A stretch of DNA of 40,000 nt, taken from positions 70,832-110,831 of the forward strand of contig SBGP01000043.1 of assembly GCA_006226595.1 (NCBI GenBank), written 5' to 3'. Position numbers and translations under genes: made by a program. Below are positions 12,888-33,774 of the stretch, piece by piece (position 1 is the stretch's first letter; each line of letters begins with the position of its first letter). The notes under the pieces were generated by a model. That model ran no database searches. It saw only the letters and a list, made by a program, of their open reading frames with translations, and was not told where the DNA came from. Origin of the DNA: Deltaproteobacteria bacterium. GTDB lineage: Bacteria > Myxococcota_A > UBA796 > GCA-2862545.

Positions 12888-13532
12888 CTACTGCCGTTGG
12901 CGCTCGATGTCGATGACGATGGGACAGTGGTCCAGATTGTGGTGCTCGAAGAACTCCGTACGGTACTCGGCACGCACAACCCGCACAGCTCCCCGGATGA
13001 GGGCGTGGTCGATGTTCGAGCCCTCTTTGCTCCCGCGATTGAGGTAGCTGGGACCGCCTTCCGGGGTGACGAGGCTCCATCCCTCCAACCGTTGCCGGTC
13101 TCGCGGCTGGTTTCTGGAGGGGTCGATGTTGAGATCCCCGATGGCGACGTCGCCGTCCAGACGCTCACGCAACGCCGCCCAGTACCGAGTCCAGTCCTTG
13201 CCCTTGTAGTAGGGGGCGCGGAGTCCCGTAATCACTAGGCCGTTCCACTCCACGGATAAGAAGCCGGCGAGGGCGCAGGTATCGGGAACCGGGAGCAGCG
13301 CCGGGCGCGGGAACGGGCGCGAGCCGGATAGCGCAATCACCTGGTTGTTGAAGTAGCCTCGCCGGTACTCAATCTGCGGGCTGCACAGCGTGTGCCGCCA
13401 ACGAGCCTCGAGAGCGCTCCGGTACTCCCTGGTGTCGACGTACTCGGTCAGGAAGAAGAGGTCGCAGCCTAGGTTGGCGATGTCGTCGAGTAGCCGCTCC
13501 GCTACGGCTCGACGTCTGACCTGGTGCCCCAC
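12888..13532 (-). CDS. endonuclease/exonuclease/phosphatase (EEP) family protein, 214 aa; true start may be upstream
   Basis: EEP hallmarks in order: 'DLFFLTEY', 'VAIGDLNIDPS', 'GSNIDHALIRG' and 'DHCPIVIDI'. The frame stays open upstream ('LEVNVHRIGALNV') with the usual N-terminal beta-strand but without ATG/GTG/TTG, so the start is uncertain. Confidence 0.75.
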   Translation of the reverse strand: MGHQVRRRAVAERLLDDIANLGCDLFFLTEYVDTREYRSALEARWRHTLCSPQIEYRRGYFNNQVIALSGSRPFPRPALLPVPDTCALAGFLSVEWNGLVITGLRAPYYKGKDWTRYWAALRERLDGDVAIGDLNIDPSRNQPRDRQRLEGWSLVTPEGGPSYLNRGSKEGSNIDHALIRGAVRVVRAEYRTEFFEHHNLDHCPIVIDIERQRQ

Positions 13533-13584: not shown

Positions 13585-13872
13585 CTATCGCCGATGCGGG
13601 TGCATACGGGTCTGGGTGCTTTCGTTGAGCGCGAGCCATGGCTCGCCGCGGATCATGCGGATCTGGATGTCATATCCGTCGCCGTCGTCACGCTCTCGGA
13701 CGCTACCCTGCGCGGCGAGCTCGGACATCGGGAGTCGGAAGCTGCCGACGGCACGAACATTCCCGGATGCGTCGCGGTAGCTGAGCTCAAGGTCGAGGAC
13801 CTCGTCTCGTACACGAGTCGCGAAGTACCGGTCGGGCGCACCTCCCTTCGCGTTGATGGTCCAACGTCGCAT
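13585..13872 (-). CDS. hypothetical protein, 95 aa
   Basis: Track ORF 13585..13959 trimmed to 'MRRWTINAKGG...' (ATG 13872), preceded by GAAGGAG. It lies 11 nt downstream of the queC-like stop. Confidence 0.5.
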   Translation of the reverse strand: MRRWTINAKGGAPDRYFATRVRDEVLDLELSYRDASGNVRAVGSFRLPMSELAAQGSVRERDDGDGYDIQIRMIRGEPWLALNESTQTRMHPHRR

Positions 13873-13883
13873 CTGGCACTCCT

Positions 13884-14573
13884 TCACGCTTGGAAGGGCA
13901 ACTCTACCGTCGGGTGCCGGTCGGCGTACTCGCGAATGCCCTCGTTGCGAAGCAAGCACGCGGGACAGGAACGACAGCCCGCATGGGGAATGCCCTCGTA
14001 GCAGGTGATGGTCCGGTCGAGCAGGTACTCGAGCACTCCGTGCTCCGCCGCCAACTCGAGTGTGTCCACCTTGGTCATCGCCACCACAGGTGTGCGAATC
14101 TCAAACTCCGAGTCCCCGAAGTCCATGCGCAGAATCTGCTGCATCAGGTCCATGTACGCTCGCGAGCAGTCCCGGTACCCAGAGTTCGCGCTCTCGATTT
14201 CGATCACGCCCATGTAGATGCAGTGCGCGCCGAGGTGGTTGGCGTGGATGCCCGCGACACGAGCCATGAGGCCGTTTCGGCCCTGCACGAGTGTGTTCGG
14301 TGGAGAGCCGAGGGCGTGCTGGATGGCGATGCTCGAGTCCGTCAACGCGTTGACCGTGACCTCCGCCAGGCAGGTGATCGGAACGACCGTGTGGTCGACT
14401 CCCCACTTCTCGCAAATCTCCTGCGCTCGTTGGAGCTCGACGCTGTGCCGCTGCCCGTACCTGAACGACATGGAGAGGACGTGTTCGGCTCCGAACTCTC
14501 GGATGGCCACAGCGAGGCAGATCGAGGAGTCCATGCCTCCCGAGTGAACGACGACTGCGTGCTTCGGGGTCAT
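13884..14573 (-). CDS. queC: divergent QueC-family PP-loop ATPase (7-cyano-7-deazaguanine synthase paralog), 229 aa
   Basis: Track ORF trimmed to 'MTPKHAVVVHSGGMDSS' (SGGxDS PP-loop). Also 'FRYGQRH', 'GYRDCS' and the C-terminal Zn cluster 'CYEGIPHAGCRSCPACLLR'. It differs from the second copy at otherwise conserved stretches, for example 'LVQGRNGLM' against 'YVPARNTVF'. Confidence 0.85.
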   Translation of the reverse strand: MTPKHAVVVHSGGMDSSICLAVAIREFGAEHVLSMSFRYGQRHSVELQRAQEICEKWGVDHTVVPITCLAEVTVNALTDSSIAIQHALGSPPNTLVQGRNGLMARVAGIHANHLGAHCIYMGVIEIESANSGYRDCSRAYMDLMQQILRMDFGDSEFEIRTPVVAMTKVDTLELAAEHGVLEYLLDRTITCYEGIPHAGCRSCPACLLRNEGIREYADRHPTVELPFQA

Positions 14574-14592
14574 GACAGCTTCCACGATGGAG

Positions 14593-15750
14593 CTACTGTG
14601 CCGGTGAGGGCGAGACACCGCGCTGAGCGCCCCAGCGGAGGAAGCCCTCCGGGTCGCCCTGCACCGCGGCGAGCAACTCCGCGGGGATGACCCCTGCACG
14701 GAGCTTCACCACGACCGGATCCTGCCCGAGCACCTCGGCTGCCCGCTCGAGCGTGTCCACGCTCAGCGGCTTGGCGCCGCTCTCCACTCGAGAGAGGTAC
14801 GAGTTTCCGATCGCGAGGCGGTCGGCCATCTCGCTCTGGCTGATATTGCGAGCCAGGCGCTGGGCCTTCAGCCAGGTGCCGAAGTCCTCGGCTTCCTTGG
14901 TGGGCGAGGTCTGCAGGGCCAAGCGGCCCTGGGCGTCGTCAGCGTCTTCCGCCGACCAGCTCAGGGCGGCAAAGGCCGAGTGATTGTGGATGGACTCAAA
15001 GTTCTCGGCGGCCACGTGGACCTCGTGTACGCCCTCGAGCTTGCGAACCGCGGTCACCACATCGCGGACAAGGTCCTCGACGAACTTTGGGTTCTCGTAG
15101 GCCTTCTCGGTGACCCACTTTTCGTCCTCTCGCTTGAGCAGCGCATAGAGCGGCGAGGAGCCGCAGGCTTCGACCGCCTCGACCACGTCCTCGATCCACA
15201 CGAGCTGGCGTGACCGGAGCTTCACCTGGATCAGGCTTCGCTGGTTGTGGGCACCGTACTCGCTGATGGACTTCGAGCACGGGCAGAGGCTCTTTACCGG
15301 AACGGTGACCCGGAGTTCGAAGTCCTCCACAGGCCCCCGTCGGGAAGCCTTGAAGCCGCAGTGGTACTCCATCAGCGAGCGTGCCCGGCTCACGGGAGCC
15401 TCCTTCTCGATGAAGTAGGGGAACGTCATCTCGATGAACGCGTCGTCGGCCTCCAGCTCGCGCTGGACCTGGGCGAGAATCCCGCCGATGTTCCGGATGG
15501 TGAGTTCGCCGCGCACCTGATTGAGGATCTGGACGAAGCGACTCATGTGCGTGCCCTTCTGATCCGCCGGGAGGCCCACGCACATCTCGATCTGGGCCAC
15601 CGTGCCCTGCATCTGGTTCTGCTTGTCCATGACCTGGATGGGGTAGGACAGGCCGCGGATGCCGACGCGCTCGATGGCGATTCCGCGCTCGTCTGACTCG
15701 CTCGCGTGGTCGGGAAGGTCAGCGAAGAGGTTCAGGGACTCGGACATCAT
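14593..15750 (-). CDS. folE2: GTP cyclohydrolase FolE2 (type IB) fused to a C-terminal XRE/Cro-type HTH domain, 385 aa
   Basis: Start at the ATGATG at 15750, overlapping the queE stop. FolE2 body: 'GIRGLSYPI', 'KGTHMSRF', 'SLCPCSKSISEYGAHNQRS', 'ENFESIHNHSAFA'. The C-terminal 96 aa (14593-14883) contain 'FGTWLKAQRLARNISQSEMADRLAIGNSYLSRVESGAKPLSVDTLERAAEVLG'. Confidence 0.9.
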   Translation of the reverse strand: MMSESLNLFADLPDHASESDERGIAIERVGIRGLSYPIQVMDKQNQMQGTVAQIEMCVGLPADQKGTHMSRFVQILNQVRGELTIRNIGGILAQVQRELEADDAFIEMTFPYFIEKEAPVSRARSLMEYHCGFKASRRGPVEDFELRVTVPVKSLCPCSKSISEYGAHNQRSLIQVKLRSRQLVWIEDVVEAVEACGSSPLYALLKREDEKWVTEKAYENPKFVEDLVRDVVTAVRKLEGVHEVHVAAENFESIHNHSAFAALSWSAEDADDAQGRLALQTSPTKEAEDFGTWLKAQRLARNISQSEMADRLAIGNSYLSRVESGAKPLSVDTLERAAEVLGQDPVVVKLRAGVIPAELLAAVQGDPEGFLRWGAQRGVSPSPAQ

Positions 15751-16388
15751 GGGATCCCGATGAGCTTGTGGGTCTGAAGGGACAGGCGCCATTTGGGATT
15801 GGCCAGGCAGTAGCGGGTGGCGGCTTCGATGTTGGCCGCGGTCCGTCCTTTGGCGTCCATGGGCTGCAGGAAGAAGTGCTCGAAATCGAGGTGCTCGAAG
15901 TCAGTGGGGCTAAGCTCGGGCTGAGGGTAGACGAGCTTCAGTTCGTGGCCCTCGGTCTGGACGATCTCGGAGCGAGGCTTCGGGCTCACGCAAATCCAGT
16001 CCACGCCGGCAGGAACCTTACCGGTCCCGTTGGTCTCCAGGCCGACTTCGATTCCGGCGGCGTGGCAGGCGTCGACGAGTTTCTTGTCCAGTTGGAGCGT
16101 GGGTTCACCGCCCGTGAACACCACGTAGGGGACGCCCCCGCTGCACTCCTCGTCCCAGCAGCGACGAAGGTGATGTGCGAGTTCCGCGGCATCGCGGAAC
16201 TTCCCGCCGCCCGGGCCGTTCGTGCCCACGAAATCCGTGTCACAGAAGCGACAGGCTGCGGTGCTGCGATCCTCCTCGCGACCGCTCCACAAGTTGCAGC
16301 CCGCGAAGCGGCAGAAGACCGCGGCTCGGCCCGCGTGGCCACCCTCACCTTGGAGCGTCAGGTAGACCTCTTTGACCGCGTACGCCAT
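15747..16388 (-). CDS. queE: 7-carboxy-7-deazaguanine synthase QueE (radical SAM), 213 aa
   Basis: 'EVYLTLQGEG', the cluster motif C-x14-C-x2-C ('CNLWSGREEDRSTAACRFC'), 'VVFTGGEPTLQ' and the C-terminal 'RLSLQTHKLIGIP'. Confidence 0.93.
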   Translation of the reverse strand: MAYAVKEVYLTLQGEGGHAGRAAVFCRFAGCNLWSGREEDRSTAACRFCDTDFVGTNGPGGGKFRDAAELAHHLRRCWDEECSGGVPYVVFTGGEPTLQLDKKLVDACHAAGIEVGLETNGTGKVPAGVDWICVSPKPRSEIVQTEGHELKLVYPQPELSPTDFEHLDFEHFFLQPMDAKGRTAANIEAATRYCLANPKWRLSLQTHKLIGIP

Positions 16389-16391
16389 CGG

Positions 16392-17087
16392 CTATGCCAC
16401 CGAGACGTAGCGAGTTGGGTCTGCCATACCGACTTCCTCGAAGCCATCGCGTCGGAGAATGCACGCATCGCACGTCCCACAAGCCACCCCGTCGGACGAC
16501 GGCGCGTAACAGGAGTGGGTGAGCTGGTAGGGGACACGGAGCTCGCGGCCGATGGCGATGATCTCGGCCTTGGTCTTGTCGATCAGGGGTGCATGCACGC
16601 GGATGTGCTGCCCCTCGACGCCGGGCTTGATGGCGAGGTTGGCCATGGCCTCGAAGGCATGGATGTACTCGGGGCGGCAGTCGGGGTAGCCGGCGTAGTC
16701 GAGCGCGTTGACGCCGATGAAGAGGTCGGAGGCCTCGTAGACCTCCGCCACGCCAAGCGCGTACGACAGGAAAACCGTGTTTCGGGCGGGCACGTAGGTG
16801 ACCGGAATCTGGCTCGTCATCTGTTCGAGCGTGCGCGACTTCGGCACGTCGATGTTGTCCGTGAGGGCGGAGCCGCCGATTTGCCGGAACATGCCCACGT
16901 CGAAGATGAGGTGCTCGACGACGTTGTAGTGCTGGGCGATCGCCATGGCGGCTTCGAGCTCGACCCGGTGGCGCTGGTCGTAGTTGTACGACACGACGAC
17001 CGGCTCAAAACCCTGGTCAATGGCCATCGCCAGGCAGGTGGCGGAATCGAGTCCACCGCTGAGCAGGATCACCGCACGCTTCCCCAT
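16392..17087 (-). CDS. queC: 7-cyano-7-deazaguanine synthase QueC (canonical-looking copy), 231 aa
   Basis: Trimmed to '[19 protein letters not shown]'. Also 'YNYDQRH', '[12 protein letters not shown]', 'GYPDCRPE' and the Zn site '[21 protein letters not shown]'. Confidence 0.93.
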
Positions 17088-17172: not shown

Positions 17173-17601
17173 ATGGTCACCGTCACCCGCCGCCTCGAGT
17201 GGGACGCCATGCACCGCATCCCGCTGCACGAGAGCAAGTGCAGGGCCTTTCACGGTCATCGCTACGTGGCCGAGATCACCTGTGTGGCGCCTCAGCTGGA
17301 CGAGCTCGGCCGCGTGGTGGACTTCGGGGTCATCAAGTCGCTGGTGGGGACCTGGATCGACGACCACTGGGACCACACTGCCATTCTGATGAGTGGCGAC
17401 CCGGAGGCGACGCCGATCGCCGAGGCCAACGAGCGACTGGGGAGGCCGGTCTACTGGATGAAGGCTCACCCCACCGCGGAGAACATCGTCAGCGAGCTCG
17501 CGGGGGTCGCGCAGCGTCTGCTTGACCCCACGGGGGTGACAGTCGTTCGGATTCGACTGTGGGAGACGCCCAACGGGTCGTCCGAATGGACCCTTGGGTG
17601 A
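17173..17601 (+). CDS. queD: 6-carboxy-5,6,7,8-tetrahydropterin synthase QueD, 142 aa
   Basis: Track ORF 16984..17601 trimmed to 'MVTVTRRLEWDAMHRIP'. Zn/catalytic motif 'CRAFHGHRY', 'VVDFGVIK', 'DHWDHTAIL' and 'RLWETPN'. Confidence 0.92.
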   Translation: MVTVTRRLEWDAMHRIPLHESKCRAFHGHRYVAEITCVAPQLDELGRVVDFGVIKSLVGTWIDDHWDHTAILMSGDPEATPIAEANERLGRPVYWMKAHPTAENIVSELAGVAQRLLDPTGVTVVRIRLWETPNGSSEWTLG

Positions 17602-17678: not shown

Positions 17679-19040
17679 ATGACCTCGAACCTTGAACTCG
17701 TTGAAGCGCTTCGCGTTTGCTGCGCTGGTGCACTGCCATCACTCGTGCGATCCGTCGAGGACGTGCATGACCTTGCGGTTTGGGGCATGGCACATCCTGA
17801 CCCGGAGGTAGCTCGCGATGCTGCGAGCTTGGCGGGATGGTTCGCCTCCGTGTCTCGGGTTGAAGCGGCGCTTCGCGAACTCGTGGCGGAGACCCTGGAC
17901 TCGCAGGTGTTGGTGGCCGCCAACGTCTCACTCGGCGAGTTTTCGGACCTCGACACGGTCGAACTTGCTGCGGCGATTGAAGACCGGGTCGACGTTGCCG
18001 CGCGTGCTGTGTGGACCACCCTCGCCTGGCACGATGAGTACGTGGACGACGCAGTGGCCATCGTGAGTGAATGGGGTGCCGTGGAGGAGTTGGCGAAGCT
18101 CGCCTGGGACTGCGGCGAGCGGGCGGAGCGCGCTGCCCCTTTGCTCGCGCGCAGGCAGGAACCGGAGGCTCTGGAGGCGCTTGAGTGCGTCCTCGACGGG
18201 GGAGACTACGCGGCTCTCTACGCACTGCGAGATGGACTCGCGCTGCGCGAAGACCCGCGTTCGATCGGGATCCTGCTCACTACCTGGGACTCAATGGTTC
18301 GGGGGGACGAGTGTGGAGCTGACTGCGCGGAAGAGGCCACTGCGCTCGTGTTGTCCCTCGGTTCGACAGCCGAGGGGCGCGATGAACTGGTCCGAGCCGC
18401 GGAAGTTTCGTCGACTGCTGTACTGGCTAGGAGTTTTCTTGCCGCGCTCGAGGGGACACCAGACACACTCGCGGAGTTTCGCTCAGAACTCGAAGGCGAG
18501 GATCCCGATCTCTATCCGGGCGCTGCGCTCCTCGAAGGCCGTGAACTGTACTGCTCACAGCTCTCGGGGCCGGACCTGCTTGAGCAGCGGCAGCCGGCGT
18601 GGTGGAGCCTTGGGAAGCGGGCCGAAGGCGACATCTCCCCCATCCCGTCGGTCCAGATCACAAAGGCCGCCTGGCGATGGCTTGAACCCGTCCAGGAGGA
18701 CCAGGAAGTCAGCGAATGGGTTGACGCGCCAGAGATCGCGACCCTCGGAGAGTTTGCCGTGCGATGGGTCGGCGCCCTACAGGACCGTGCCATCGAGAAG
18801 TTCGTGATCGAGGGCCGTGAGCAGATCGACTACATCGAGCCCATCCGCGACGCGTGGCGCGAGCTCGACTTTCCGAAGGGGGTGTTTGAGGCCTCGCCTG
18901 GTCAAGTGGACCCGGCATGGGCCCGGGCGCTCTGGCGAGCCAGCCGCATCCTTCCGGGCGATCCAGAGTGGTGGCTCGCCTGGCTGGTCTGGACCCTCTC
19001 CGAACCACACAGCGCCGTAGATTCTCGCTTGGGCGACTGA
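17679..19040 (+). CDS. hypothetical acidic protein, 453 aa (464 aa if the TTG at 17646 is used)
   Basis: Track ORF 17646..19040. The ATG at 17679 is preceded by GGAGA. The protein is helical, Leu/Ala/Glu-rich and Trp-rich at the C-terminus ('PEWWLAWLVWTL'). No recognisable domain. It lies 77 nt downstream of queD on the same strand. Confidence 0.6.
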   Translation: MTSNLELVEALRVCCAGALPSLVRSVEDVHDLAVWGMAHPDPEVARDAASLAGWFASVSRVEAALRELVAETLDSQVLVAANVSLGEFSDLDTVELAAAIEDRVDVAARAVWTTLAWHDEYVDDAVAIVSEWGAVEELAKLAWDCGERAERAAPLLARRQEPEALEALECVLDGGDYAALYALRDGLALREDPRSIGILLTTWDSMVRGDECGADCAEEATALVLSLGSTAEGRDELVRAAEVSSTAVLARSFLAALEGTPDTLAEFRSELEGEDPDLYPGAALLEGRELYCSQLSGPDLLEQRQPAWWSLGKRAEGDISPIPSVQITKAAWRWLEPVQEDQEVSEWVDAPEIATLGEFAVRWVGALQDRAIEKFVIEGREQIDYIEPIRDAWRELDFPKGVFEASPGQVDPAWARALWRASRILPGDPEWWLAWLVWTLSEPHSAVDSRLGD

Positions 19041-19062: not shown

Positions 19063-20163
19063 TCAGGTGTTCGCCTGATCCCGCACCCACCGTTGATACT
19101 GGCGAGTCAGGTGGTTCGCGAGGAGGTTTACGTCCTGGCTGGTGTTCTGCACGTCATCCCAGCGTCGCTTCACATCTCCACCGAAGTCCCAGTAGCCCTC
19201 GTTCCAGCGACAGTGAGGCTTGATCCCGGCCAAGTGGGTGGTGAAGTCCTCTTCGGTCGGCCAGCGGTCCCGGAACCCATCGGAGATGGCGTCCATCAGG
19301 AAGCCGAGGGTGACCACACCGGCGCCGTGAAGCAGACGGGACTGGCGCGGCTTCAGATCCCAAAGCTCCGGCCACGTGCGACGGACAGCCGACCAGTACC
19401 CAAACAGGACTTGCTGCATCACCGTCTGGGCCTGGTCCGTTTCAAGCAGGCGGATGCGGTACAGGACGCCGTCCGACAGGCTGTTCTCGAGGAAGCGCAG
19501 GATCGAGTTGTCCTTGATCTTGGCGCCCGGGTTCGTGGCCGTGGAGATGGCCTGGTACAGCGGGGAGTCTTCCCGATGGTTGAGGACCTCGAGGATCGAA
19601 GCGGGCAACTTCCGCTTGTCGAGGTGGCTCGGCATCCGGGCGTCGACGCCCGGGAGAAGCTCGTAGATGAGGTTCTTCGGTAGCGGCTTGGTCGAGTTCA
19701 CCAGCATGAACTGCTCTCGGGCTTCCGAGTCCGACTCGGCGACGAAGCCGATCGCGAACATCGGGAAAGTCTCGACCCTGGCCTCGCGAATCGCGGCGAT
19801 CCGCTGCTGCCCATCCACGATCCAGCCCACCTTGTCCTCGGGGTCGACCGGGACCTTCAGGACGCCATGGGTACTTGCGCCATCCGCAGAGCTACCGGTG
19901 GGTTCGAAGCGCACTCGGGAATCGAAGGCTAGCACCAGGGCGTTCGGCACCATGGGCTCCTCACTCTCCACGTACGCTCGGATCTCCGCGATGTGCTTGC
20001 GCACCTCGGGCCGCTGGTAGCCGAGCAAGCGTCCGTCCTCGTCTCGGGACACTCGGGAGACCGAGGCGAAGGTGGGAATCGACTTCGCGTCTACGCCGAA
20101 GGCGTAGATGGTCTTGCCGGGGCTCTGGCTCAACGCCAGGGCGGGGATGTCCAAGACAGTCAT
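19063..20163 (-). CDS. dpdB: DGQHR-domain (DndB/DpdB-like, ParB-fold) protein, copy 1, 366 aa
   Basis: Trimmed to 'MTVLDIPALAL...' (ATG 20163, ATGA overlap with the dpdA stop). Motifs: 'SVSRVSRDEDGRLLGYQRPEVRKHI', 'GWIVDGQQRIAAI', 'FMLVNSTKPL', 'YWSAVRRTWPELWDLKPRQSRLLHGAG'. Confidence 0.8.
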   Translation of the reverse strand: MTVLDIPALALSQSPGKTIYAFGVDAKSIPTFASVSRVSRDEDGRLLGYQRPEVRKHIAEIRAYVESEEPMVPNALVLAFDSRVRFEPTGSSADGASTHGVLKVPVDPEDKVGWIVDGQQRIAAIREARVETFPMFAIGFVAESDSEAREQFMLVNSTKPLPKNLIYELLPGVDARMPSHLDKRKLPASILEVLNHREDSPLYQAISTATNPGAKIKDNSILRFLENSLSDGVLYRIRLLETDQAQTVMQQVLFGYWSAVRRTWPELWDLKPRQSRLLHGAGVVTLGFLMDAISDGFRDRWPTEEDFTTHLAGIKPHCRWNEGYWDFGGDVKRRWDDVQNTSQDVNLLANHLTRQYQRWVRDQANT

Positions 20164-21431
20164 GTGGAGCTTTCCTCGAGTGCGGAACGGTGTGCGTGTA
20201 GCACTTGTTGGGTGTGCCAGAGGTTGTGGAAGCCTCGGCGGCGGTTCCTGTTGGCGCCGCGGAAGACGATGACGTCGATGCCGAGGTCGCGGCAGACCGC
20301 ACACGGGCAGTTCTCCCAGGGACGGTCGGTGAGGGTCCGGCGGATGCGGTCCCACCTGGACGCTCCGCCGTACAACTCCTCGTAGGCCTGGAGATGCCCA
20401 AGGGCCTCGTCGACGCTGGTCGTGCCCTCACCTACGCCCTTCACGGCGTCCTGGCACGCGCGTTCTTTCCTGAACGCCTCCTGCTGGTTGACGGCGCCGC
20501 TGCGGATGGCTCGAAGCAACTTCGAATACTTGTCGGCCTGCGGGATGCGGACGGCGGTGTAGTGGCCGAGGGGGTCGGAGGAGTAGTAGTTGTTGCGGGC
20601 ATCCTTGAAGGCCTGGCGCATCGGAGAGGCGCTGTCCAGGCTCACCACACCAGCTCGCGTGTACGCCTGGAAGTTCTCCAAGCGGGTGATGCCGAACAAG
20701 TGGAGGCGCAGTCGACCTTGGGTGACGCCCCGGACTGCCTCCAGTACCTCCAGGATCTGGTCGGTCTTCAACGGGACCAGACCCCCGAGAGCCACGTAGT
20801 CGTAGCCCATGGCGATCAGCTGCTCGACCGCGCGCGAATAGGAGCGCGGCGACCAGCCCTGGGCAATTCCAACCGGCTGGAAGTCATAGTTGCCGGCTCG
20901 GACCTTCCGCAGAAACTCGGCGGCGAGCGTGAGCGTCAGGTCGAATCGCTGCTGGAACTCGGGAGGAACGGCGTTGCCGAGCAGCCCTGGTTCATCGAGC
21001 TCTGGACTATAGGCGCCAATCATGTGGTCGACGGACACGCCGTGCGTGAACTGGCCTGCTTCGTAGAAGTCGATCACCTCGTCCACCGAGTAGGGTGGCT
21101 CCGGTAGATCTCGGTAGTTGAAGGCACCGCAGTCGCCGAGCAAAGGCCAGTCTGCGGGCTCGAACTCGGGTTGCGTCGGGAAGCGCAGGAACCGACGCGC
21201 GCCGTTCCTCATGAAGCGTAGGCGTTGGGCCTGGGTGTAGCGGCCTTGGACGCCGTCCATGTCGAGCAGGAACTTGCTGACCAGGAGGCCGTCGTACGGA
21301 CGCTCCGGCGCCATGAGCTCGTGCGCATACACGTCGTCCCGCTGCGGGATGCGGTCCCGGGGCGAGGTTTCGGTCTCGAAGTCGAAGCGAGGGTCGACGA
21401 GGTCGAGTGCGTCAGCGTAGAAAAACCGCAT
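20160..21431 (-). CDS. dpdA: DpdA, TGT-fold DNA 7-deazaguanine (preQ0) transglycosylase, 423 aa
   Basis: TIM-barrel TGT-like features: 'YDYVALGGLVP', 'LHLFGITR', 'VSLDSASP' and the Zn knuckle 'CPCAVCRDLG...NRRRGFHNLW'. It sits between DGQHR genes next to preQ0 biosynthesis genes. Confidence 0.85.
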   Translation of the reverse strand: MRFFYADALDLVDPRFDFETETSPRDRIPQRDDVYAHELMAPERPYDGLLVSKFLLDMDGVQGRYTQAQRLRFMRNGARRFLRFPTQPEFEPADWPLLGDCGAFNYRDLPEPPYSVDEVIDFYEAGQFTHGVSVDHMIGAYSPELDEPGLLGNAVPPEFQQRFDLTLTLAAEFLRKVRAGNYDFQPVGIAQGWSPRSYSRAVEQLIAMGYDYVALGGLVPLKTDQILEVLEAVRGVTQGRLRLHLFGITRLENFQAYTRAGVVSLDSASPMRQAFKDARNNYYSSDPLGHYTAVRIPQADKYSKLLRAIRSGAVNQQEAFRKERACQDAVKGVGEGTTSVDEALGHLQAYEELYGGASRWDRIRRTLTDRPWENCPCAVCRDLGIDVIVFRGANRNRRRGFHNLWHTQQVLHAHRSALEESST

Positions 21432-22552
21432 CAGGACCGGTGAAGCGCCAGCGTGTACTCGCGCATGAGGTGGTTGGTGAGAAGCCGGACGCTCTTAGGC
21501 GTGTTCTCGATTTCCTTCCAGTGAAGATCGCCCAGACCCTCCCAATGCCCCGAAGTCCACCGGCAGAGGGGTGCAACTCGGGCGACTTCGACGAGGGCGT
21601 GCTCGTAGAGACCCTCAGAGGATGGGTTTGCGCGGCCCATCACCTGGTCCATCAGTCCACCCAGGGCCTTGATGCCAGCGCCGTGCATCAGCCGGCTGCG
21701 CGTGGGCTTTAGCCCCCATGCTTCGGGGAAGGTGTCCCGGACAGCGGACCAATAGGCGATGAGCAGCGCAGTGACGGCCTCCGTGTCCGTTTCCCCCGTC
21801 GCCATGTTTCGGAATGGAAAGAGGCAGCCGCCAGGCTTGGTGAGCCGTTCCTTGATCATGTCCACCACGGCGGTGTCGTTGACGACAGCGTCCTTGCTGT
21901 TCCGCGCGGAAGGCCGAGCGATGAGGCCCTTGAACGGGCTCTCGGGGTGGCGGTTCAGCAGGTCGCAGATGGCCGACGGCAGTTTCCTCACCGACAAGCG
22001 CCGGGGCAGGTCCGTGTCCACATTCGGGAGCAGTTCGGTAATCAGCCGACGGGGCAGGGGACGCGTGTTGTTCACGCGAAGGAACTGGTCTCGCTGCGTC
22101 GCGAGGTCTCCTCCCATGAAGGCGACCACAGGGATGGGGAGGTCGGATGACTTCGTGCGCGAGAGGGCGATTGCGCGCTGCTGTCCATCCACGATCCACC
22201 CGGGCGGGCTGCTGGTGTCCGGAACGGAAATGTCGATCACGCCGCTGATCGCCAGCCCGTCGTCCGTCATCGGGCCTCGGGACTTCCGGAACGAGAGCCC
22301 CCATTCGAACGCGAGGATGATGGCGTTCGGAAATAGGACCTGGCCGGAGTCGACGTAGTCCTGAATGTCCTGGATGTGCTGACGAACCTCGTCGCGCTGG
22401 TAGCCGATGAGCTCGCCATCGTCGTCGCGACTCACCCGCGAGATGGACGCCACCTTCAGCAGCTCGTGCGGTGCGAGAGCGAAGACGTACACCGGGTGCT
22501 CATCGTGCTGCTTGAACTGCAGCGCGCGTCGCGAGATCTCGATGGGCTTCAT
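21431..22552 (-). CDS. dpdB: DGQHR-domain (DndB/DpdB-like) protein, copy 2, 373 aa
   Basis: Trimmed to 'MKPIEISRRALQF...' (ATG 22552, ATGA overlap upstream; the stop shares 1 nt with the dpdA ATG). Motifs: 'SISRVSRDDDGELIGYQRDEVRQHI', 'GWIVDGQQRAIAL', 'FLRVNNTRPL', 'YWSAVRDTFPEAWGLKPTRSRLMHGAG'. It aligns by eye with copy 1 along the whole length. Confidence 0.8.
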   Translation of the reverse strand: MKPIEISRRALQFKQHDEHPVYVFALAPHELLKVASISRVSRDDDGELIGYQRDEVRQHIQDIQDYVDSGQVLFPNAIILAFEWGLSFRKSRGPMTDDGLAISGVIDISVPDTSSPPGWIVDGQQRAIALSRTKSSDLPIPVVAFMGGDLATQRDQFLRVNNTRPLPRRLITELLPNVDTDLPRRLSVRKLPSAICDLLNRHPESPFKGLIARPSARNSKDAVVNDTAVVDMIKERLTKPGGCLFPFRNMATGETDTEAVTALLIAYWSAVRDTFPEAWGLKPTRSRLMHGAGIKALGGLMDQVMGRANPSSEGLYEHALVEVARVAPLCRWTSGHWEGLGDLHWKEIENTPKSVRLLTNHLMREYTLALHRS

Positions 22553-23529
22553 TCCTGGTCCCCTTGAATACGTCGGAACAGCCGGCCGAACTTCTTCTGC
22601 TCGTACGCAAAGCCGGCGTCGCGAAACTGCCGAAGAGCCGCGCTCGCGGACGTCGGTGGCGTTTCGCTCGCCAGGGCCTCTCGCACCCAGTTCTCCACCT
22701 GCCACTCATGCTGCCGGAGCCGCTTCGGGTAGGTGGTCGCGGGTGCTTCCTCCAAGACGTCGGCCATGACCTGTCGGCAGCGGCCCGGCGTGAGGTCCGC
22801 CGGCGTCGCGGCCTGCTCCATCACGCGAGCTAGAGCCCGAACGGTCAGCTGTCCGGTTGGACCGCCAAGCACGCTTCGCATCCTTCCCTCGAGTGGGACG
22901 GCGGACGTGCCGAGGGCATCGATGGCTTCGGTGTCGGTGGTGAACACCGAAAGTGCTCTGGCTCCCAACTGCGCTTGCAGGACCTGCAGATCCGGCAAGA
23001 CGACGCGGAGGTACTCGCCAGGGAGGGCGACGACGATTCGGTCGTCGTCTTCTGCCAATCCGCGGAGTGCATCGCGTCCGCCGATCATCTTCCACCAGGC
23101 GAGCCGTCCCGAGTGACCGCCGGGCCCGTCCCCCCCGGGGACGGTGTCCGAGTGTCCCGGGTTGAAGGTCGCGGCATAGGCGGGCACGGCATCCGTGAAC
23201 TCCCGCAGCCCTACACCCGCGCTTGCGACCCAAGCGCGGACCGGCAGATGCGTGTCGTGAACCATCTGGCGCGCGACGGACCAGTATCCGCCCTTGTACA
23301 GGCGGCTGATCTTCACGCGGTCGTCCGCCGCGTTGAGTTCATCGAGCCAGGAGAGCGCGGCGATGTGTGGCAGCAAGTGCTTGTGCTGACGAACCCGTAG
23401 TTGCTTCTTGGGTACGAGCGTCTTGGACGCCGTGCACGCGAGCACGCAATGGACCACTGATTCCCCCCGGGGCCTGCTTGTACAACGGGTCGAGCTCGCA
23501 CGCAAGAAAGTGCAGCACATCATGCTCAT
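22549..23529 (-). CDS. first gene of the modification operon; DpdC-position protein of unknown fold (326 aa; likely 302 aa from GTG 23457)
   Basis: Complete track ORF. The first 24 aa ('MSMMCCTFLRASSTRCTSRPRGES') look non-native, and GTG 23457 follows 'GGGGGGAA'. The core begins 'VVHCVLACTASKT'. Assignment to DpdC rests on operon position only. Confidence 0.55.
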   Translation of the reverse strand: MSMMCCTFLRASSTRCTSRPRGESVVHCVLACTASKTLVPKKQLRVRQHKHLLPHIAALSWLDELNAADDRVKISRLYKGGYWSVARQMVHDTHLPVRAWVASAGVGLREFTDAVPAYAATFNPGHSDTVPGGDGPGGHSGRLAWWKMIGGRDALRGLAEDDDRIVVALPGEYLRVVLPDLQVLQAQLGARALSVFTTDTEAIDALGTSAVPLEGRMRSVLGGPTGQLTVRALARVMEQAATPADLTPGRCRQVMADVLEEAPATTYPKRLRQHEWQVENWVREALASETPPTSASAALRQFRDAGFAYEQKKFGRLFRRIQGDQE

Positions 23530-23719: not shown

Positions 23720-26700
23720 TTGGCACCTAAGTTCGTGATTGGCCGGAAGGGCGGGTGGGGTCCTGGGAGATTGCTGTCACGGGATGGTCCGAACATCACC
23801 GTCGAACACTTCGTGAAGCCCGCCTCCTCTGGTCAGGTCAGGAAGGTCGTCCGGAGAGTGTCTGACGCCGTCCAGTGGACGCCAACGGTTCGCACTCGCC
23901 TGTACTTCGAGGACAAAGCCGGCCGTTGGCACGTTGGCTTGTTCCGCTGGGTGGACGACTTCACTGGCGACTACGTGTTGCAGGTTCCTGGCCAGGAGTT
24001 CATCCAGGTGGATCCACGCCGCATTCACGTACGGTGGAGGGGGGCCAGGGCAAATCCGCGTACAAACCTTGGTAACCACTTCTTGGAGTCGCCCCTCTAC
24101 CACAATGCCCGCCGGCGTCTGGTTCGTGCTTTGGGCGAGCAGAGGGCACGGGCTGGCGGCATGACCGGGCTGTTGTCCGCCTCTGTCGAGTTGTACCCCC
24201 ACCAAGTCGAAGTGGTCCGCCGTGTGCTGCAGGACCCCGTGCTTCGCTACCTCCTCGCCGATGAGGTTGGTCTGGGCAAGACCATCGAGGCCGGGGCCAT
24301 CATTCGCCAATACCACTTGGACCGGAGCCGAACGATCAGTCGCTCACACACCATCGCCATCGTCGTCCCTCCAGCGCTAACGCACCAATGGCGACACGAG
24401 TTGGCGACCCGCTTTCAACTCGACCCGCGCGTGACTCCTGGTCTACGACTCCTGGATTTCGAGGATGTCGAGAACGGAGAGCTGCCTGATAGCGTAGGTC
24501 TTTTGGTAGTCGATGAGGCCCACCATGTCGCTCGGCCGAAACCTCGTGCTGGGAGCGCTTCGGCCCTGATCCAGGAGGCGGCGCTCAGCGCGCCGTCGTT
24601 GCTGCTCCTCTCCGCCACCCCGGCCCTGCACAACGAGGCCGCATTCCTGACCATGCTGCACATGCTGGATCCCACGATGTACGACGTCTCGGATGTAGAA
24701 GGGTTCCAGGAGCGACTTCGATCTCGCACCGAACTCGCAGAGGCGTTCTCGGACTTCCACGAGGGGGCTGACCCCGATGAGCTGGAGGAGGTCTCGGCGC
24801 TGTTTCGGGAGATGTTTCCGGCAGATACCCGTCTCGCGAACCTGCTCGACCAGGTAGACGACGCCGTCGAGGGGGCTATCGACGTGAACGAGGCTGCTCG
24901 CGGGGCCGTGCGGGCCGCGCGAGTCCACATTGGAGAGACGTACCGGCTCCATCGACGTGTCTTGCGGAATCGGCGCGGCGGTGCGAGCGTGGAGTACCCC
25001 GTACGCGGCCGAAGTGGCCTGACCGTCGTCAGGTATGTTTCTTCGGCGGAAATTGAACTCGACTCCATCCTCGAAAACTGGCGGCTCGACGCGCTCGTCA
25101 GGTGTGCCTCTGGGGACCGCCGCGTGTACGCGGACGCCTACCTGCGGTTGCTGCAGGCGCGGCTTGAGGGTGACAGCGCGCTCGCCGAGGCGGCCTCCGA
25201 GGTCTCTGGGGGCCTTCCGTCGATGGCTCACCTGTCGGCGGAACTGAGGGAACAGGCCCTGGAACTCTCGGCCTCTCGGGACCGCGTTCTCGCGTTTCTC
25301 GACTGGCTGCGTGAACGCGAACACGGACCCTGCCGAATCGTTGTGTTCGCTGACGAGACGCCTGGTCTTGCCGAGGACTTTCATGGGAAGACCGGCTTTA
25401 GTCTGTTCAGACTCCACGGTCGGATGAGTCGTGTCGCCATTCGGGATGTCATCCAGTCCTTCGAGGCCACGGAACGCTCGGTCCTTCTGTGCGACGAGGC
25501 GGGGGAGGAGGGCGTAAACCTCCAGTTTGCCGATCATCTCGTCCACTGGAACTTGCCCGCCTCACCCAATCGCATCGAGCAGCGGATGGGCCGACTTGAC
25601 CGCCACAACGATCGCGACCGGCCCGCGGTGCCCGTGACGGCGTTTCTGCCGAGTGACGCGGATGCATCTCTGCCGGGCGCCTGGCTGGAGTGGCTCGACG
25701 GTGCCCTCTGCGTGTTCGACCGGTCTGCCTCGTCGCTGCAGTTCTTCCTCGATGGATTGATGCCGGATGTCTGCAACCAGTTCTTCGATGACGGTCCGGA
25801 CGGCGTACGAGTGCGTCTGAAGGGGGATAGGCAGAGCATCGACCTCGAACGGCGGACAATCGCCCGTCACCAGAATCTGGACGCGATCGAGGCCTCGATG
25901 TCCCCCGCTCAACAGATTCTGGACAGGGTTCGCGAGGCGGAAGTGGAATGGCGACAACTTCAGGAGGACGTCGAGGAGTGGGTGGTGCGGACCCTGCAGG
26001 CAAGGAGGGAGACTGATGGCCGACGCGCTGGGTCTCCCGTGAGATACCAGTTTCCTCGGGAGAGCCATGTTCCGAAAACTGACCTGGGCACCTACTTTTC
26101 GGGTTGCCTGTCCGTAGAGGATGAGCATCTGCGGACCACTCCCGTGACGGCGTGGATGACCTTCGACCGCGGCTGTGCGGTCGCCTCCGGGACGACGATT
26201 GCCAGGCCTGGATCCGACTTCCTGGAGAGTCTGACGGCCTACCTCGACTGGGATGATCGGGGCACGGCCTACGCGATGCTTCGCTTCCGGCCCGGCGTCG
26301 AGAAGTTGGAGCCCCCCCCCGTCGTATTCCGATTTGACTTCGTCGTGAGCGGACAAGCACGCACGGCTGCCGACGTGGTGGAGTACCGGCTGGCGAGAAA
26401 GGCGGTGGAGCGCCGCATGGACGAGCTGTTCCCGCCGCTCGTGCATACGGTGTGGATTGATCAGGGGGGACGTGTCGTCGCGGACGAACGCCTGCTCGCC
26501 GTTTTGAGAGAGGAGTTTAGGAAGCGGCGAAGAGTCGATACCGTGGGGTGGGACTTCGACCTCGGTAACCTCTGGAGCGTAGACGACCGAGAGCCCCGGG
26601 CGGCTGTACCTCGAAGGCACCAGAAACTGGTGAAGCCAGAGCGACGTCGACGTGTGAAGGAGATGGCTGCTGCGTGGGGCGCCCGAGGTCCGGTCTCCGA

Positions 26701-27007
26701 ATACTTTCTTTCCGATGACTGGGACGAGCTTTGTCTCGCCGTGCGCAACCAGGCGCAGGAGGCTCTCCGCGAACAACTTCGGCTCGCCGAGCGGTGCGAG
26801 ACGTTGGCAGGACGTGCGCAGGAGAGGGCGCGGACCAACCAGCAGCAACTCGAGATGCGTGCCGAGTTGGACGGCGCCGACCACATCCAGGCCGAAATCC
26901 GCACTCAAGCCGCGCTGTATGCTGCCTTGGTGGAGGGCGTTCGTAACCCCTCTGTTCGTCTCGATGCCGTCGGCGTCTTCTTCTTGACGGGGACGCCGCT
27001 GCCATGA
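23720..27007 (+). CDS. dpdE: SNF2/RapA-like helicase, 1095 aa (DpdE-type)
   Basis: TTG start. Motif I 'LLADEVGLGKTIEAG', II 'LLVVDEAHHV', III 'LLLLSATPALHN', C-terminal helicase lobe 'LLCDEAGEEGVNLQFADHLVHWNLPASPNRIEQRMGRLDRH'. It is the first gene of the operon divergent from dpdC/B/A. Confidence 0.8.
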   Translation: MAPKFVIGRKGGWGPGRLLSRDGPNITVEHFVKPASSGQVRKVVRRVSDAVQWTPTVRTRLYFEDKAGRWHVGLFRWVDDFTGDYVLQVPGQEFIQVDPRRIHVRWRGARANPRTNLGNHFLESPLYHNARRRLVRALGEQRARAGGMTGLLSASVELYPHQVEVVRRVLQDPVLRYLLADEVGLGKTIEAGAIIRQYHLDRSRTISRSHTIAIVVPPALTHQWRHELATRFQLDPRVTPGLRLLDFEDVENGELPDSVGLLVVDEAHHVARPKPRAGSASALIQEAALSAPSLLLLSATPALHNEAAFLTMLHMLDPTMYDVSDVEGFQERLRSRTELAEAFSDFHEGADPDELEEVSALFREMFPADTRLANLLDQVDDAVEGAIDVNEAARGAVRAARVHIGETYRLHRRVLRNRRGGASVEYPVRGRSGLTVVRYVSSAEIELDSILENWRLDALVRCASGDRRVYADAYLRLLQARLEGDSALAEAASEVSGGLPSMAHLSAELREQALELSASRDRVLAFLDWLREREHGPCRIVVFADETPGLAEDFHGKTGFSLFRLHGRMSRVAIRDVIQSFEATERSVLLCDEAGEEGVNLQFADHLVHWNLPASPNRIEQRMGRLDRHNDRDRPAVPVTAFLPSDADASLPGAWLEWLDGALCVFDRSASSLQFFLDGLMPDVCNQFFDDGPDGVRVRLKGDRQSIDLERRTIARHQNLDAIEASMSPAQQILDRVREAEVEWRQLQEDVEEWVVRTLQARRETDGRRAGSPVRYQFPRESHVPKTDLGTYFSGCLSVEDEHLRTTPVTAWMTFDRGCAVASGTTIARPGSDFLESLTAYLDWDDRGTAYAMLRFRPGVEKLEPPPVVFRFDFVVSGQARTAADVVEYRLARKAVERRMDELFPPLVHTVWIDQGGRVVADERLLAVLREEFRKRRRVDTVGWDFDLGNLWSVDDREPRAAVPRRHQKLVKPERRRRVKEMAAAWGARGPVSEYFLSDDWDELCLAVRNQAQEALREQLRLAERCETLAGRAQERARTNQQQLEMRAELDGADHIQAEIRTQAALYAALVEGVRNPSVRLDAVGVFFLTGTPLP

Positions 27008-29526: not shown

Positions 29527-30437
29527 TGACCATGCTTAACTCCGCGAGTGACGGCCACCCTGTGGTGTGGCGCTCCATGGTCTGGACGCTTGCGTCGGCT
29601 GCAGACGGGACGATGCCCAGCAGTCAGCTTGAGGCATTGATGGCGCCCCGGACGGTTCAGCTTCGGGAAGAAGGCAAGTTCTTCCGCACGTCCCTGCTGA
29701 GGGCGTCAGAACTCGGTGTTCTCGAGGAACAGGGTGCCAGTGTGGGGCTCTCTTCTGGGTACGCGTCCCTACAGCCAGGTGACGTTCGGGCCTTCAGGAT
29801 CCGCATGCGTCGAGCGGTGCTCGAACCGCAGAATGCCGAGCCGCTGTTTGGTGAGGGAGACCAGGGTGGGGTTTCCGCCGATCTCGTGCGTGCCCTCGCA
29901 TGGTTCCTCGCGGTGGATGGGCTGCCTGGTGTCGGGCACAACGCTGTGGACAGGAGGTTGGGCGAAACCATGTTGGACGGCCAGCTTCACACGCCGCAGG
30001 GACAGGTCCGGTGGAATGCCTTCCGGGAGTGGGCGACCCTCCTCGGGTTCGTGTGGGAAGCCGGAAGTGGTCGTGTGAAGGCGGTGGTGGCCGACCCCAC
30101 GGTCGCCATTCACGATGAACTCGCGGACATCTTCGGCGATCAGACCGTAGTGAGCCAGGCGGAGTTTCGGGACTCCTTGGCGCGACGGCTCTCGGTCCTC
30201 GATGGTGGACGCTACCGCATCCAGATGGAAGCGTCGATGAAAGCCGATGCAGTGGAACGCCAGCACGTACGTCAGTTTTCCGCCTCAACCGCGAGAGCGC
30301 TCCGCCGCCTACGCGCGATCGGGGCTCTGCGATGGGACCGTCGCTCGGACATAGATCTCGCATTCTTTGGAGCTCCAGGAGCTTCAGGGTCCGAGAGTGC
30401 ATCCCACTTCATCCGTGGTGAGGCTCTCGATGCGTGA
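29526..30437 (+). CDS. hypothetical protein, 303 aa (DpdG position)
   Basis: Complete track ORF. The start shares 1 nt with the upstream stop (TGATG). No motif recognised. Confidence 0.6.
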   Translation: MTMLNSASDGHPVVWRSMVWTLASAADGTMPSSQLEALMAPRTVQLREEGKFFRTSLLRASELGVLEEQGASVGLSSGYASLQPGDVRAFRIRMRRAVLEPQNAEPLFGEGDQGGVSADLVRALAWFLAVDGLPGVGHNAVDRRLGETMLDGQLHTPQGQVRWNAFREWATLLGFVWEAGSGRVKAVVADPTVAIHDELADIFGDQTVVSQAEFRDSLARRLSVLDGGRYRIQMEASMKADAVERQHVRQFSASTARALRRLRAIGALRWDRRSDIDLAFFGAPGASGSESASHFIRGEALDA

Positions 30438-33400: not shown

Positions 33401-33774
33401 TGCACGTGAAGCTTCAGAATGTGCTCGAGATCGCTCGTGAGCGAGGACTCGGACTCGAGCCTCAGAGGCAACTCAAACGAGCCCTAGAGGCCGTTGAAGG
33501 TGACGACCTGGCGGAAGCGAGAGGCCGCCTTGCGGCAGTTTCGGGCCGACCGGCGGAGATACCCCCATACGAACTCGCCCGGGCTTCGACCCCAGCTGTG
33601 GTGAAGCTCGTGGCGCTTCTAGACGCGGCATCCTCTCTCATGGATGCTGTGGAGCCCCTTTTGGACGTCGCATCCCACGTCGGTGGAAGCGCTGCTGAGG
33701 CGTACCGGCGGGAGGTCGACGGCCTGCTCGGTGCTTTCGTCGAGTGGACGGCCCCTGAGTTGGGGGCCAGATGA
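30430..33774 (+). CDS. large P-loop NTPase, 1114 aa, with an internal Pro/Gly/Ser linker (DpdH position)
   Basis: Track ORF 30367.. trimmed to 'MRELQRYWPE' (ATG 30430, 8-nt overlap with the upstream stop). Walker A 'ITGRSGCGKSHFIVWL'. Walker-B-like 'ELVFLAEDFSVL'. The linker 'PGTGSSPGAGLSPGPSPSPSPGAGHSPGPSPSPGAGQSPRPSPGAAPRPGAGSTPTPGAGPGQGG' is followed by a ~400-aa helical C-terminal region. Confidence 0.7.
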   Translation: MRELQRYWPERVQGTSIINADADVIQEPSVVLATHQEVTLLKQSVDLVAGDGAQGVEVSEEEFLDYFLQDCDNANMLAPITGRSGCGKSHFIVWLEARLLRRDDADRRHIIRIPKGASFRSVIRRILADLRGDAYTELHERVKRAGNSLTTKAAREWVVAGVNIALDNIHADLTGALERYAEVQRTDEVKARIRDLQQRLRHATGLQALLSDNLFKRDHFFAEGQAIDRIAVRIVHGKKRSADPIEFQVAAEDFVLPEELERLVSTSAGAPAQAYYQWLMGETQRNRDKRALAAQVMNQALDLAIPRVLQLGDNELNEVLRAIREQLEEEGRELVFLAEDFSVLAGIQGALLDAMTVPRGGAGRPLCVMRTALAVTDGYISERDTIATRARFQFRMPERVVDQETIVDFVAEYLNAERHGTVDLNAWYREQADGPSSPLLPPLEIVDLDREYLDAFGYSTRGIPLFPLSRTAIREILRVKLRTEGGGLVFHPRTIVNHVLIEVFKNHARSFAHGQFPPAAFELYKERPLDSMAPLLTSQVMRLAPTHSDGQRWLVLLRFWGGAPIDMTEARSLNARVYEAFGLPVLPGTAVNQVGPGTSAAEGSGRRSAEVLMPISGPSVDAPTPGTGSSPGAGLSPGPSPSPSPGAGHSPGPSPSPGAGQSPRPSPGAAPRPGAGSTPTPGAGPGQGGTPAEPIQQWDRVLTEWRNGAMLPTEQANLLRTWVLGLVLRHVDWEAEGLRQPVASLGAQKKVWLGEAAAGGIAEGACHIRVGGLEVDTDADRHGLHLALQGLVRFELGGWRFDFENADVLYEHLMARLATWHAQFVEWYRASCPDLVVAEVKLLSALAVIERGSMMTLEDVGDLFERHRSNAGGPVAWRDLHHALDFERASRIDLLLGLVGIFQGGHVDARQNQQLLALDGWRILCAMEGLEPSVCPEISGLSKNKTYQRNTEEAAREVAKRWTHALAAQRSWLRMQSERVLTSIPADAGSLHVKLQNVLEIARERGLGLEPQRQLKRALEAVEGDDLAEARGRLAAVSGRPAEIPPYELARASTPAVVKLVALLDAASSLMDAVEPLLDVASHVGGSAAEAYRREVDGLLGAFVEWTAPELGAR
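32296..32500. repeat. Low-complexity coding repeat (about 36-bp imperfect unit 'tggggcgggtca[c/g]agcccg[g/a]ggccgagtccgagtcc', about 3 copies at 32322-32432)
   Basis: Read directly from the sequence. It encodes the PG/SP linker of the P-loop protein. Confidence 0.8.

Follow-up and report, generated by a model that had tools for sequence, protein, structure and literature searches.

Two QueC proteins in one Dpd island: a canonical preQ0 synthase and a member of a separate, strongly conserved QueC lineage

Results and discussion

The preQ0 module of the island

The stretch of contig SBGP01000043.1 from a Deltaproteobacteria bacterium analysed here (40,000 nt, in the following called the window) contains a Dpd island, for restriction and for DNA modification with 7-deazaguanines, in which dpdC-dpdB-dpdA-dpdB and the genes dpdE to dpdJ were recognised. 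Within this island two genes encode proteins of the QueC family, which comprises the synthases of 7-cyano-7-deazaguanine (preQ0). The first, queC1, is located at 16392–17087 on the minus strand and codes for 231 amino acids from its ATG; the second, queC2, lies at 13884–14573 on the same strand and codes for 229 amino acids. An earlier note on this DNA had described two full-length QueC genes at these places, and indeed both reading frames are intact and both products match the family strongly (PF06508; QueC1 251 bits, QueC2 183 bits). Both also clear the cut-off of the QueC equivalog TIGR00364, which is 150.3 bits, with 204 and 171 bits, respectively. Whereas QueC1 belongs to the canonical QueC proteins, QueC2 is neither a recent duplicate nor an ordinary close paralog but represents a separate and strongly conserved QueC lineage, here called type 2.

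Two further genes are located between them on the minus strand. The queE gene (15747–16388) codes for a 7-carboxy-7-deazaguanine synthase of the Cx14CxxC type with 213 amino acids (TIGR04508, 339 bits, cut-off 240). It is followed by folE2 (14593–15792), the 399 amino acid product of which is fused to a C-terminal XRE-type helix-turn-helix (HTH) domain (PF02649, 297 bits, residues 26–275; HTH_3, residues 308–359; NF010200, 272 bits); an alternative ATG of folE2 at position 15750 overlaps the queE stop codon. Divergent from queC1, on the plus strand, a queD gene for 6-carboxy-tetrahydropterin synthase is found at 17173–17601 (PF01242, 86 bits), 71–88% identical to the queD of related islands. 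The frame analysis of GC content at third codon positions (GC3) backs the reading frames of the module, including the plus strand for queD. Upstream of queC2 there is a GGAAG ribosome-binding site at a distance of 6 nt, and the gap after the folE2-HTH stop codon measures 19 nt; therefore, queC2 appears to be co-transcribed with queC1, queE and folE2. The gene order queC-queE-folE2-queC' read earlier as an operon was right, but it has to be corrected for the HTH fusion of folE2 and for the queD gene on the opposite strand.

The FolE2-HTH protein is probably a regulator of the preQ0 module. The fusion is kept, at 57–60% identity, in all related Dpd islands seen (L010, L013, L060, L100, L101, L102, L183–L186). 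One of these, on a contig of an alphaproteobacterial metagenome-assembled genome (L186, 5999–12341), has queC and folE2-HTH only and lacks queD and queE in its vicinity; genes for phage-type integrases, two in number, lie on its flanks.

In the 7.2 Mb genome to which the window belongs, queC1 and queC2 are the only PF06508 genes, no housekeeping queC was found outside the island, and queF was not found in this genome either. This makes the island the sole source of preQ0 and indicates that its preQ0 is not en route to queuosine. The genome holds two full-length bacterial-type tgt genes (C25:119892-120941 and C81:106487-107512; 499 and 489 bits). As queF is absent, a precursor of queuosine may be salvaged by the organism; otherwise one of the two tgt copies would stem from the 2.7% contamination.

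A separate lineage of QueC proteins

QueC1 and QueC2 share 29% identity over 233 columns in BLASTP (E 8e-24), in line with the estimate of about a third of the residues made by eye. That both are PP-loop and zinc-cluster proteins was also seen correctly. The ATP-pyrophosphatase loop (PP-loop) SGGxDS reads SGGLDS in QueC1 and SGGMDS in QueC2, and each protein has a C..CxxCxxC zinc site. In QueC2 this is C191-Y192...C200-x2-C203-x2-C206, with the essential Tyr following the first Cys, and the site of QueC1 is equivalent, with a 9-residue spacer. The motifs [19 protein letters not shown] and YPDC of QueC1 are intact, so that YxQxHxxE, VPxRN and YPDC are all present. QueC2 has an intact YGQRHSVE, but VQGRN instead of VPxRN and YRDC instead of YPDC, while Y35, R99 and Y131 (Escherichia coli numbering, used throughout) are kept. 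Both prolines of VPxRN and YPDC are replaced across the whole type-2 lineage.

With 62–66% identity to housekeeping QueC proteins of Myxococcota, Pirellula (Planctomycetes) and Desulfonema (Desulfobacteria), and with thousands of relatives, QueC1 is, judged by its sequence, a mainstream and ordinary preQ0 synthase. The search with QueC2 yielded 1422 proteins, the best of which are 60–72% identical, and only 34 out of 1.8 billion cluster representatives reach an E value of 1e-30 with it. Within the type-2 lineage the median identity is 62%, compared to 32% between this lineage and canonical QueC. An alignment of 37 members shows 55 columns without variation, among them those of the ATP loop, of the zinc site and of the catalytic residues. 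The lineage can be recognised by the signature HSGGMDSS, V-x-GRN and E-x-A-NSGYRDC, which in QueC2 reads HSGGMDSS, VQGRN and ESANSGYRDC.

In trees of 164–166 QueC-family sequences, calculated with FastTree and carrying Shimodaira-Hasegawa-like supports only, the type-2 proteins come together, along with some deeper relatives, and QueC1, E. coli QueC and the canonical partner proteins lie in a different clade; the supports along the path are 0.76–0.97, and the exact type-2 node becomes weakly supported once degenerate representatives are included. The comparison with housekeeping, Dpd-island and phage QueC-like proteins, which the earlier note had suggested as a check, places QueC2 apart from the ordinary QueC clade. 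A full-text search of the searchable literature found no description of the type-2 lineage or of two QueC proteins in Dpd islands. In a recent survey of PF06508 (Libby et al. 2026, PMC13329287) canonical QueC makes up one cluster ('cluster 1') with 91% of the sequences, and Dpd is unmentioned.

How does a type-2 protein differ from a canonical QueC (EC 6.3.4.20), such as those of E. coli or Bacillus subtilis? The length is the same, and so is the fold as far as sequence can tell, since QueC2 aligns end to end with the QueC structures from B. subtilis (PDB 3BL5, E 8e-41) and Pectobacterium (E 2e-36). Type-2 proteins keep the PP-loop (SGGxDS), Y35, Q37, H39 and E42 of YxQxHxxE, R99 and N100 of VPxRN, Y131, D133 and C134 of YPDC, K165, the four zinc cysteines and Y189. 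Among these, Y35, R99, Y131 and Y189 are essential in E. coli QueC, where their replacement by Ala gave inactive enzymes and abolished queuosine formation (PMC13329287). Like canonical QueC, QueC2 is furthermore linked to queD, queE and folE2. On the other hand, a set of signature residues, defined as conserved to at least 90% in the type-2 lineage and to at most 10% in canonical QueC, includes F8H, Q12M, T15S, F95L, F103M, L104A and A207N. D127E is followed by an insertion of two residues and by Y/F128N, and P132R introduces an Arg that is invariant in the lineage and occurs in 0% of canonical QueC. F8H, Q12M, F103M, L104A, D127E with the insertion, Y/F128N and P132R are invariant throughout type 2. 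The comparison of active-site residues asked for in the earlier note thus has two sides: all essential residues are kept, but loops adjacent to the pocket are remodelled.

Distribution of type-2 QueC

Homologs of QueC2 belonging to type 2 were found at 54–72% identity in other Dpd islands, in Chlamydiota and in Coxiella-like genomes, where they usually occur as a second QueC beside a canonical copy. Three metagenome islands have this supply module together with both QueC genes. In L013, dpdB-dpdA-dpdB and folE2HTH-queE-queC are followed by a divergent queD-queC2 pair, and L183 (DpdA 74% identical) has the same layout. In L060 the arrangement is folE2HTH-queC and then a divergent queD-queE-queC2. 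Two truncated contigs, L010 and L019, show queD-queC2; for L010, a canonical QueC was found elsewhere in its genome, on a different contig. Hence, queC2 lies directly 3' of queD in four islands and after queE in L060. Sister islands with canonical QueC only are L100, L102, L184 and the P0411 contig (DpdA 60–77% identical), which are otherwise the same, as well as L186 and the one-sidedly truncated L101 and L185. In this small sample QueC2 appears as an optional add-on in approximately 40% of the related Dpd islands, and none was seen in which it is the only QueC. Since the sister islands lacking QueC2 are otherwise the same, QueC2 does not define the modification, and on these grounds we rejected the idea that it is an obligatory component of Dpd.

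The chromosomal occurrences come from genomes which are mostly metagenome bins of uncertain completeness. Among 151 sampled genomes of Chlamydiota, 24 carry a type-2 gene (46–66% identical), 126 have neither type of QueC, and type 2 is present where the preQ0 pathway is. An intact type-2 gene was found in 12 genomes of the Coxiella-like family, in which 34 more have the canonical gene only. The canonical copy follows queE in these genomes (L016, L018), and the carriers in both groups possess queF and a single tgt, that is, an ordinary queuosine pathway. Elsewhere, the lineage is rare: it was found in one out of 400 sampled Gammaproteobacteria, and among 301 sampled genomes from the phylum of the window it is restricted to the window's own genome. 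Two Coxiella-like genomes have type-2 pseudogenes (G498:C3:424023-424697 and G479:C1:920898-921561), consisting of pieces with 33–61% identity and interrupted by several stop codons, which shows that the type-2 gene can be lost.

Some of the canonical partners deviate in their own motifs. The copy of Parachlamydiaceae (L017) has FHGRN and YVDC, and the partner at L060:8163-8813 has TPGRN and FPDC. The E. coli QueC mutant Y131F is only partly active. The deviation is not systematic, as the partners in the window, in L013 and in Waddliaceae are intact.

In metagenomes, 77 out of 80 type-2 loci have no que or dpd gene nearby; the exceptions are L019, L060 and L097, the latter with a weak DpdF-like match of 22% only. 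At 31 metagenome loci a gene for an NAD-dependent sugar epimerase/dehydratase is located directly upstream of the type-2 gene on the same strand, and genes for a family 4 glycosyltransferase (GT4) and a UDP-glucose dehydrogenase are further recurrent neighbours. The 31 loci (L027:4525-5499, L028, L034–L036, L043 and others) represent a low-GC lineage in which genes for GT2 and GT9 glycosyltransferases and a conserved open reading frame (ORF) of 154 amino acids lacking a Pfam match also adjoin the type-2 gene. In Chlamydiota the type-2 gene overlaps a gene for an MsbA-like ATP-binding cassette (ABC) exporter, with accA nearby. Thus, the neighbourhood varies by lineage (MsbA/accA, chorismate lyase, epimerase, or none of these), and in the neighbourhoods compared no partner gene is conserved across the type-2 lineages. 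Because the context changes from lineage to lineage, we read these neighbourhoods as inherited gene order and not as functional operons.

Possible function of QueC2

According to the accepted logic of Dpd systems, DpdA and DpdB insert preQ0 into DNA, where DpdC converts it further to the amide dADG (deoxy-7-amido-7-deazaguanosine) (PMC10164549, PMC5699537). Since the reaction of QueC proceeds from 7-carboxy-7-deazaguanine (CDG) through the free amide ADG to the nitrile preQ0, the earlier note had proposed that the second QueC might release ADG, act on a base already in DNA or make a different derivative, in analogy to phage pathways with Gat-QueC fusions. These proposals found no support. The essential residues are kept and the equivalog cut-off is passed, related islands work without QueC2, and genomes exist in which type 2 is the only QueC. 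Moreover, DpdC, which turns dPreQ0 in DNA into dADG in the Salmonella system (PMC10164549), is encoded in the window. The dpdC gene (22549–23529, minus strand) was detected by the PADLOC model PDLC02817 (E 1.3e-46) and has no Pfam or NCBIfam match; as only the PADLOC models make it visible, annotation pipelines would label it hypothetical. With DpdC present, the established route to dADG is available to this island, and QueC2 as a stand-in for a missing DpdC was rejected.

A specific relationship to the phage proteins was not found either, so that the likeness is one of analogy only. Campylobacter phage QueC*, a proposed ADG synthase, and Gat-QueC, which belongs to an archaeosine route, are QueC homologs in DNA-modifying gene sets whose product is thought not to be preQ0. 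QueC2 matches the QueC domain of the phage 9g Gat-QueC with 50 bits and the QueC* of phage CP220 with 67 bits (26% identity). Neither phage protein is nearer to QueC2 than to the other QueC proteins, and the score with QueC* does not exceed those of QueC1 and E. coli QueC. Both phage proteins fall outside the type-2 clade in the tree and have motif changes of their own (YGSNH/FPDC and YGCRA/YPDN). In contrast to Gat-QueC, QueC2 with its 229 amino acids consists of the QueC domain only and lacks the N-terminal class-II glutamine amidotransferase domain. No type-2 QueC was detected in phages, with identities below 40% in GenBank phages and of at most 31% in IMG/VR. For these reasons a phage origin, or kinship with the product-switching QueC proteins of phages, was rejected. 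QueC2 does not match the QatC models of NCBIfam and PADLOC (QueC1 reaches 37 bits against a cut-off of 280), and the window contains neither qatABD nor genes of a cyclic-oligonucleotide-based anti-phage signalling system (CBASS).

Evidence on what type-2 enzymes can do comes from genomes without a canonical copy. In three Coxiella-like genomes (G004, G505, G474) and one of Chlamydiota (G079) a type-2 gene occurs with no detectable canonical QueC. Of these, G004, G505 and G079 have queE; in G004 and G079 it is accompanied by queD and queF. Downstream of queE, where their relatives have the canonical queC, G004, G505 and G079 have other genes. This gap in an otherwise syntenic position makes a real loss of the canonical gene likely, and it implies that a type-2 enzyme is able to provide preQ0 on its own.

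We therefore favour, at about even chances, the reading that QueC2 is a preQ0 synthase of a second lineage with the same reaction as canonical QueC, because the essential residues are kept, the equivalog cut-off is passed, type-2-only genomes exist, QueC2 is dispensable in sister islands and DpdC is present. QueC2 would then catalyse the two ATP-dependent steps from CDG to ADG and from ADG to preQ0. Its contribution would be extra capacity for the slow final step supplying DpdA, and its kinetics or regulation may differ from those of QueC1. The enzymatic activity of QueC2 is inferred, and so is the reason for keeping both copies.

Several observations weigh against a simple second synthase. 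A canonical QueC is also present in 23 of the 24 type-2-carrying Chlamydiota, despite genome sizes of 1.4–3.3 Mb, in nine of the 12 Coxiella-like carriers and in all five genomes or contigs with a QueC2-carrying Dpd island that could be judged. Simple redundancy should often lead to the loss of one copy, yet both are kept. The losses are also asymmetric, with canonical-only cases common and type-2-only cases rare, and the latter are metagenome bins in which a canonical copy may be located on an unassembled piece. The canonical partner in L060 has been replaced by one of another QueC lineage, with 39% identity to QueC1, but QueC2 is conserved there (61% identical to the one studied here), a pattern that looks like selection for having both proteins. 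Finally, lineage-invariant changes (D127E with the insertion, P132R, F103M) cluster in two loops next to the substrate pocket; the VPxRN-F and D127/YPDC loops have been placed at the ATP/substrate pocket (PMC13329287), and the equivalent of position 127 in RoyL is Asp132, which contacts adenylated CDG (CDG-AMP) in a model.

Alternatively, QueC2 may be a non-redundant helper that needs canonical QueC, which we regard as possible but less probable. Such a helper might be specialised on a half-reaction, either from CDG to ADG with the amide being released, which would include the ADG release proposed in the earlier note, or from ADG to preQ0, or it might be a ligase coupling adenylated CDG to a nucleophile other than ammonia. 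Besides the nearly obligatory co-occurrence, with many canonical-only islands and genomes and no QueC2-only island, the strong conservation of the lineage and its invariant changes, the Arg for the Pro of YPDC and D127E with the insertion, argue in this direction. There are also precedents for a conserved core with a changed outcome, for instance RoyL, a deazapurine amide synthetase which makes amino-acid amides of CDG, and Cap9/QatC, which are involved in protein deazaguanylation, as well as the phage proteins QueC* and Gat-QueC. RoyL-type enzymes and Cap9/QatC, which join adenylated CDG to amines or to the N-termini of proteins, have the conserved adenylating core in common with QueC2, and RoyL and Cap9 retain the canonical pocket residues, but the context of QueC2 is devoid of their partner genes (ATP-grasp or TauD; QatA/B/D; CBASS). 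Against a helper stand the type-2-only genomes that keep queE, two of them together with queD and queF, and the lack of a conserved partner gene across lineages. QueC2 does not particularly resemble QueC*, Gat-QueC or QatC, dADG is already explained by DpdC, and QueC2 is dispensable in sister islands. In its broadest form, as a functionally distinct accessory enzyme (ADG synthase, ADG-to-nitrile enzyme or CDG ligase) that works only with canonical QueC and changes or tunes which 7-deazaguanine gets into DNA, in the case of Dpd islands, or into tRNA, in that of Chlamydiota and Coxiella-like bacteria, this role for type 2 seems possible to us but less probable.

Rather improbable is the amidation of some other carboxylic acid, such as a uronic acid in a lipopolysaccharide (LPS) sugar or the pterin acid made by QueD (6-carboxy-tetrahydropterin, CPH4), by a lineage that was only partly drawn into Dpd islands. 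The coupling to the epimerase/dehydratase gene at 31 metagenome loci, the nearby genes for GT2, GT9, GT4 and UDP-glucose dehydrogenase, the overlap with the exporter gene in Chlamydiota and the location directly 3' of queD in four islands would fit such a substrate. However, these neighbourhoods differ by lineage and are best read as synteny by descent, and all residues assigned to the handling of 7-deazaguanine and ATP in canonical QueC are invariant. In addition, the presence of type 2 follows the preQ0 pathway in Chlamydiota, and in the Dpd islands QueC2 is found among que genes. A role as sugar or LPS amidotransferase was therefore downgraded, as contexts vary and no partner is conserved. 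Very improbable, finally, is that QueC2 has no catalytic role, serving for instance as a partner of QueC1 in regulation or structure, or that it is a duplicate in decay: the B. subtilis enzyme has been described as a homodimer (PMC5699537), which makes a mixed QueC1/QueC2 dimer conceivable, and type-2 pseudogenes exist in G498 and G479, but the reading frame of queC2 is intact, its GC3 is as high as that of the neighbouring genes, and the 55 columns invariant in 37 sequences cover catalytic residues as well as ATP loop and zinc site.

QueC has been treated as a uniform family. Type 2, however, stands out sharply as a sub-lineage marked by invariant changes of its own at the pocket, and it is kept beside canonical QueC in bacteria with small genomes and in some of the Dpd defence islands. 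Should it be no more than a second preQ0 synthase, as we favour, the lineage provides a natural experiment on the variable residues of QueC and a marker for a sub-type of Dpd islands. If it has its own product or half-reaction, it would add an extra step to a pathway considered complete and could explain how the balance between amide and nitrile 7-deazaguanines in DNA and tRNA is controlled.

The surrounding island

Besides dpdC, the modification half of the island consists of three genes on the minus strand: a first dpdB copy (21431–22705; NF041060, 411 bits), dpdA for the DNA 7-deazaguanine transglycosylase (20160–21431; NF041059, 504 bits, cut-off 200) and a second dpdB copy (19063–20355; NF041060, 440 bits). 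The restriction half is on the plus strand at 23720–39018 and comprises dpdE (NF041062, 810 bits), dpdF (NF041063, 763 bits), dpdG (NF041064, 171 bits), dpdH (NF041065, 529 bits), dpdI (NF041066, 31 bits) and dpdJ (NF041067, 1631 bits). DpdE, F, G, H and J score above their own cut-offs, whereas the match of DpdI is weak. With dpdA, dpdB and dpdC recognised together with dpdE to dpdJ from the set of helicase and nuclease genes, the island as a whole belongs to the Dpd systems.

The genes dpdA, dpdB, dpdC and dpdE to dpdJ are shared with the Dpd system known from Salmonella enterica serovar Montevideo (dpdA-K; PMC10164549, PMC5699537). The Salmonella island depends on the que genes of its host, whereas the one described here brings its own preQ0 pathway with the FolE2-HTH fusion and has two dpdB and two queC genes. 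The GC content of the window is approximately 72% up to position 8000 and approximately 64% beyond, which fits an acquired island. We regard the Dpd island as horizontally acquired and as bringing along its own preQ0 pathway (folE2-HTH, queD, queE and queC).

Further genes lie next to the preQ0 module. A small orphan ORF (13585–13959) lies between queC2 and a gene of the endonuclease/exonuclease/phosphatase family downstream of it (PF03372, E 4e-7; 12888–13532, minus strand), and neither was found in the other islands. On the 3' side of queD an ORF of 453 amino acids (17679–19040, plus strand) has no match in Pfam, NCBIfam or PADLOC, and tblastn revealed no counterpart of it in L013, L183, L010 and L019. 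In these four islands the position of this ORF is held by queC2.

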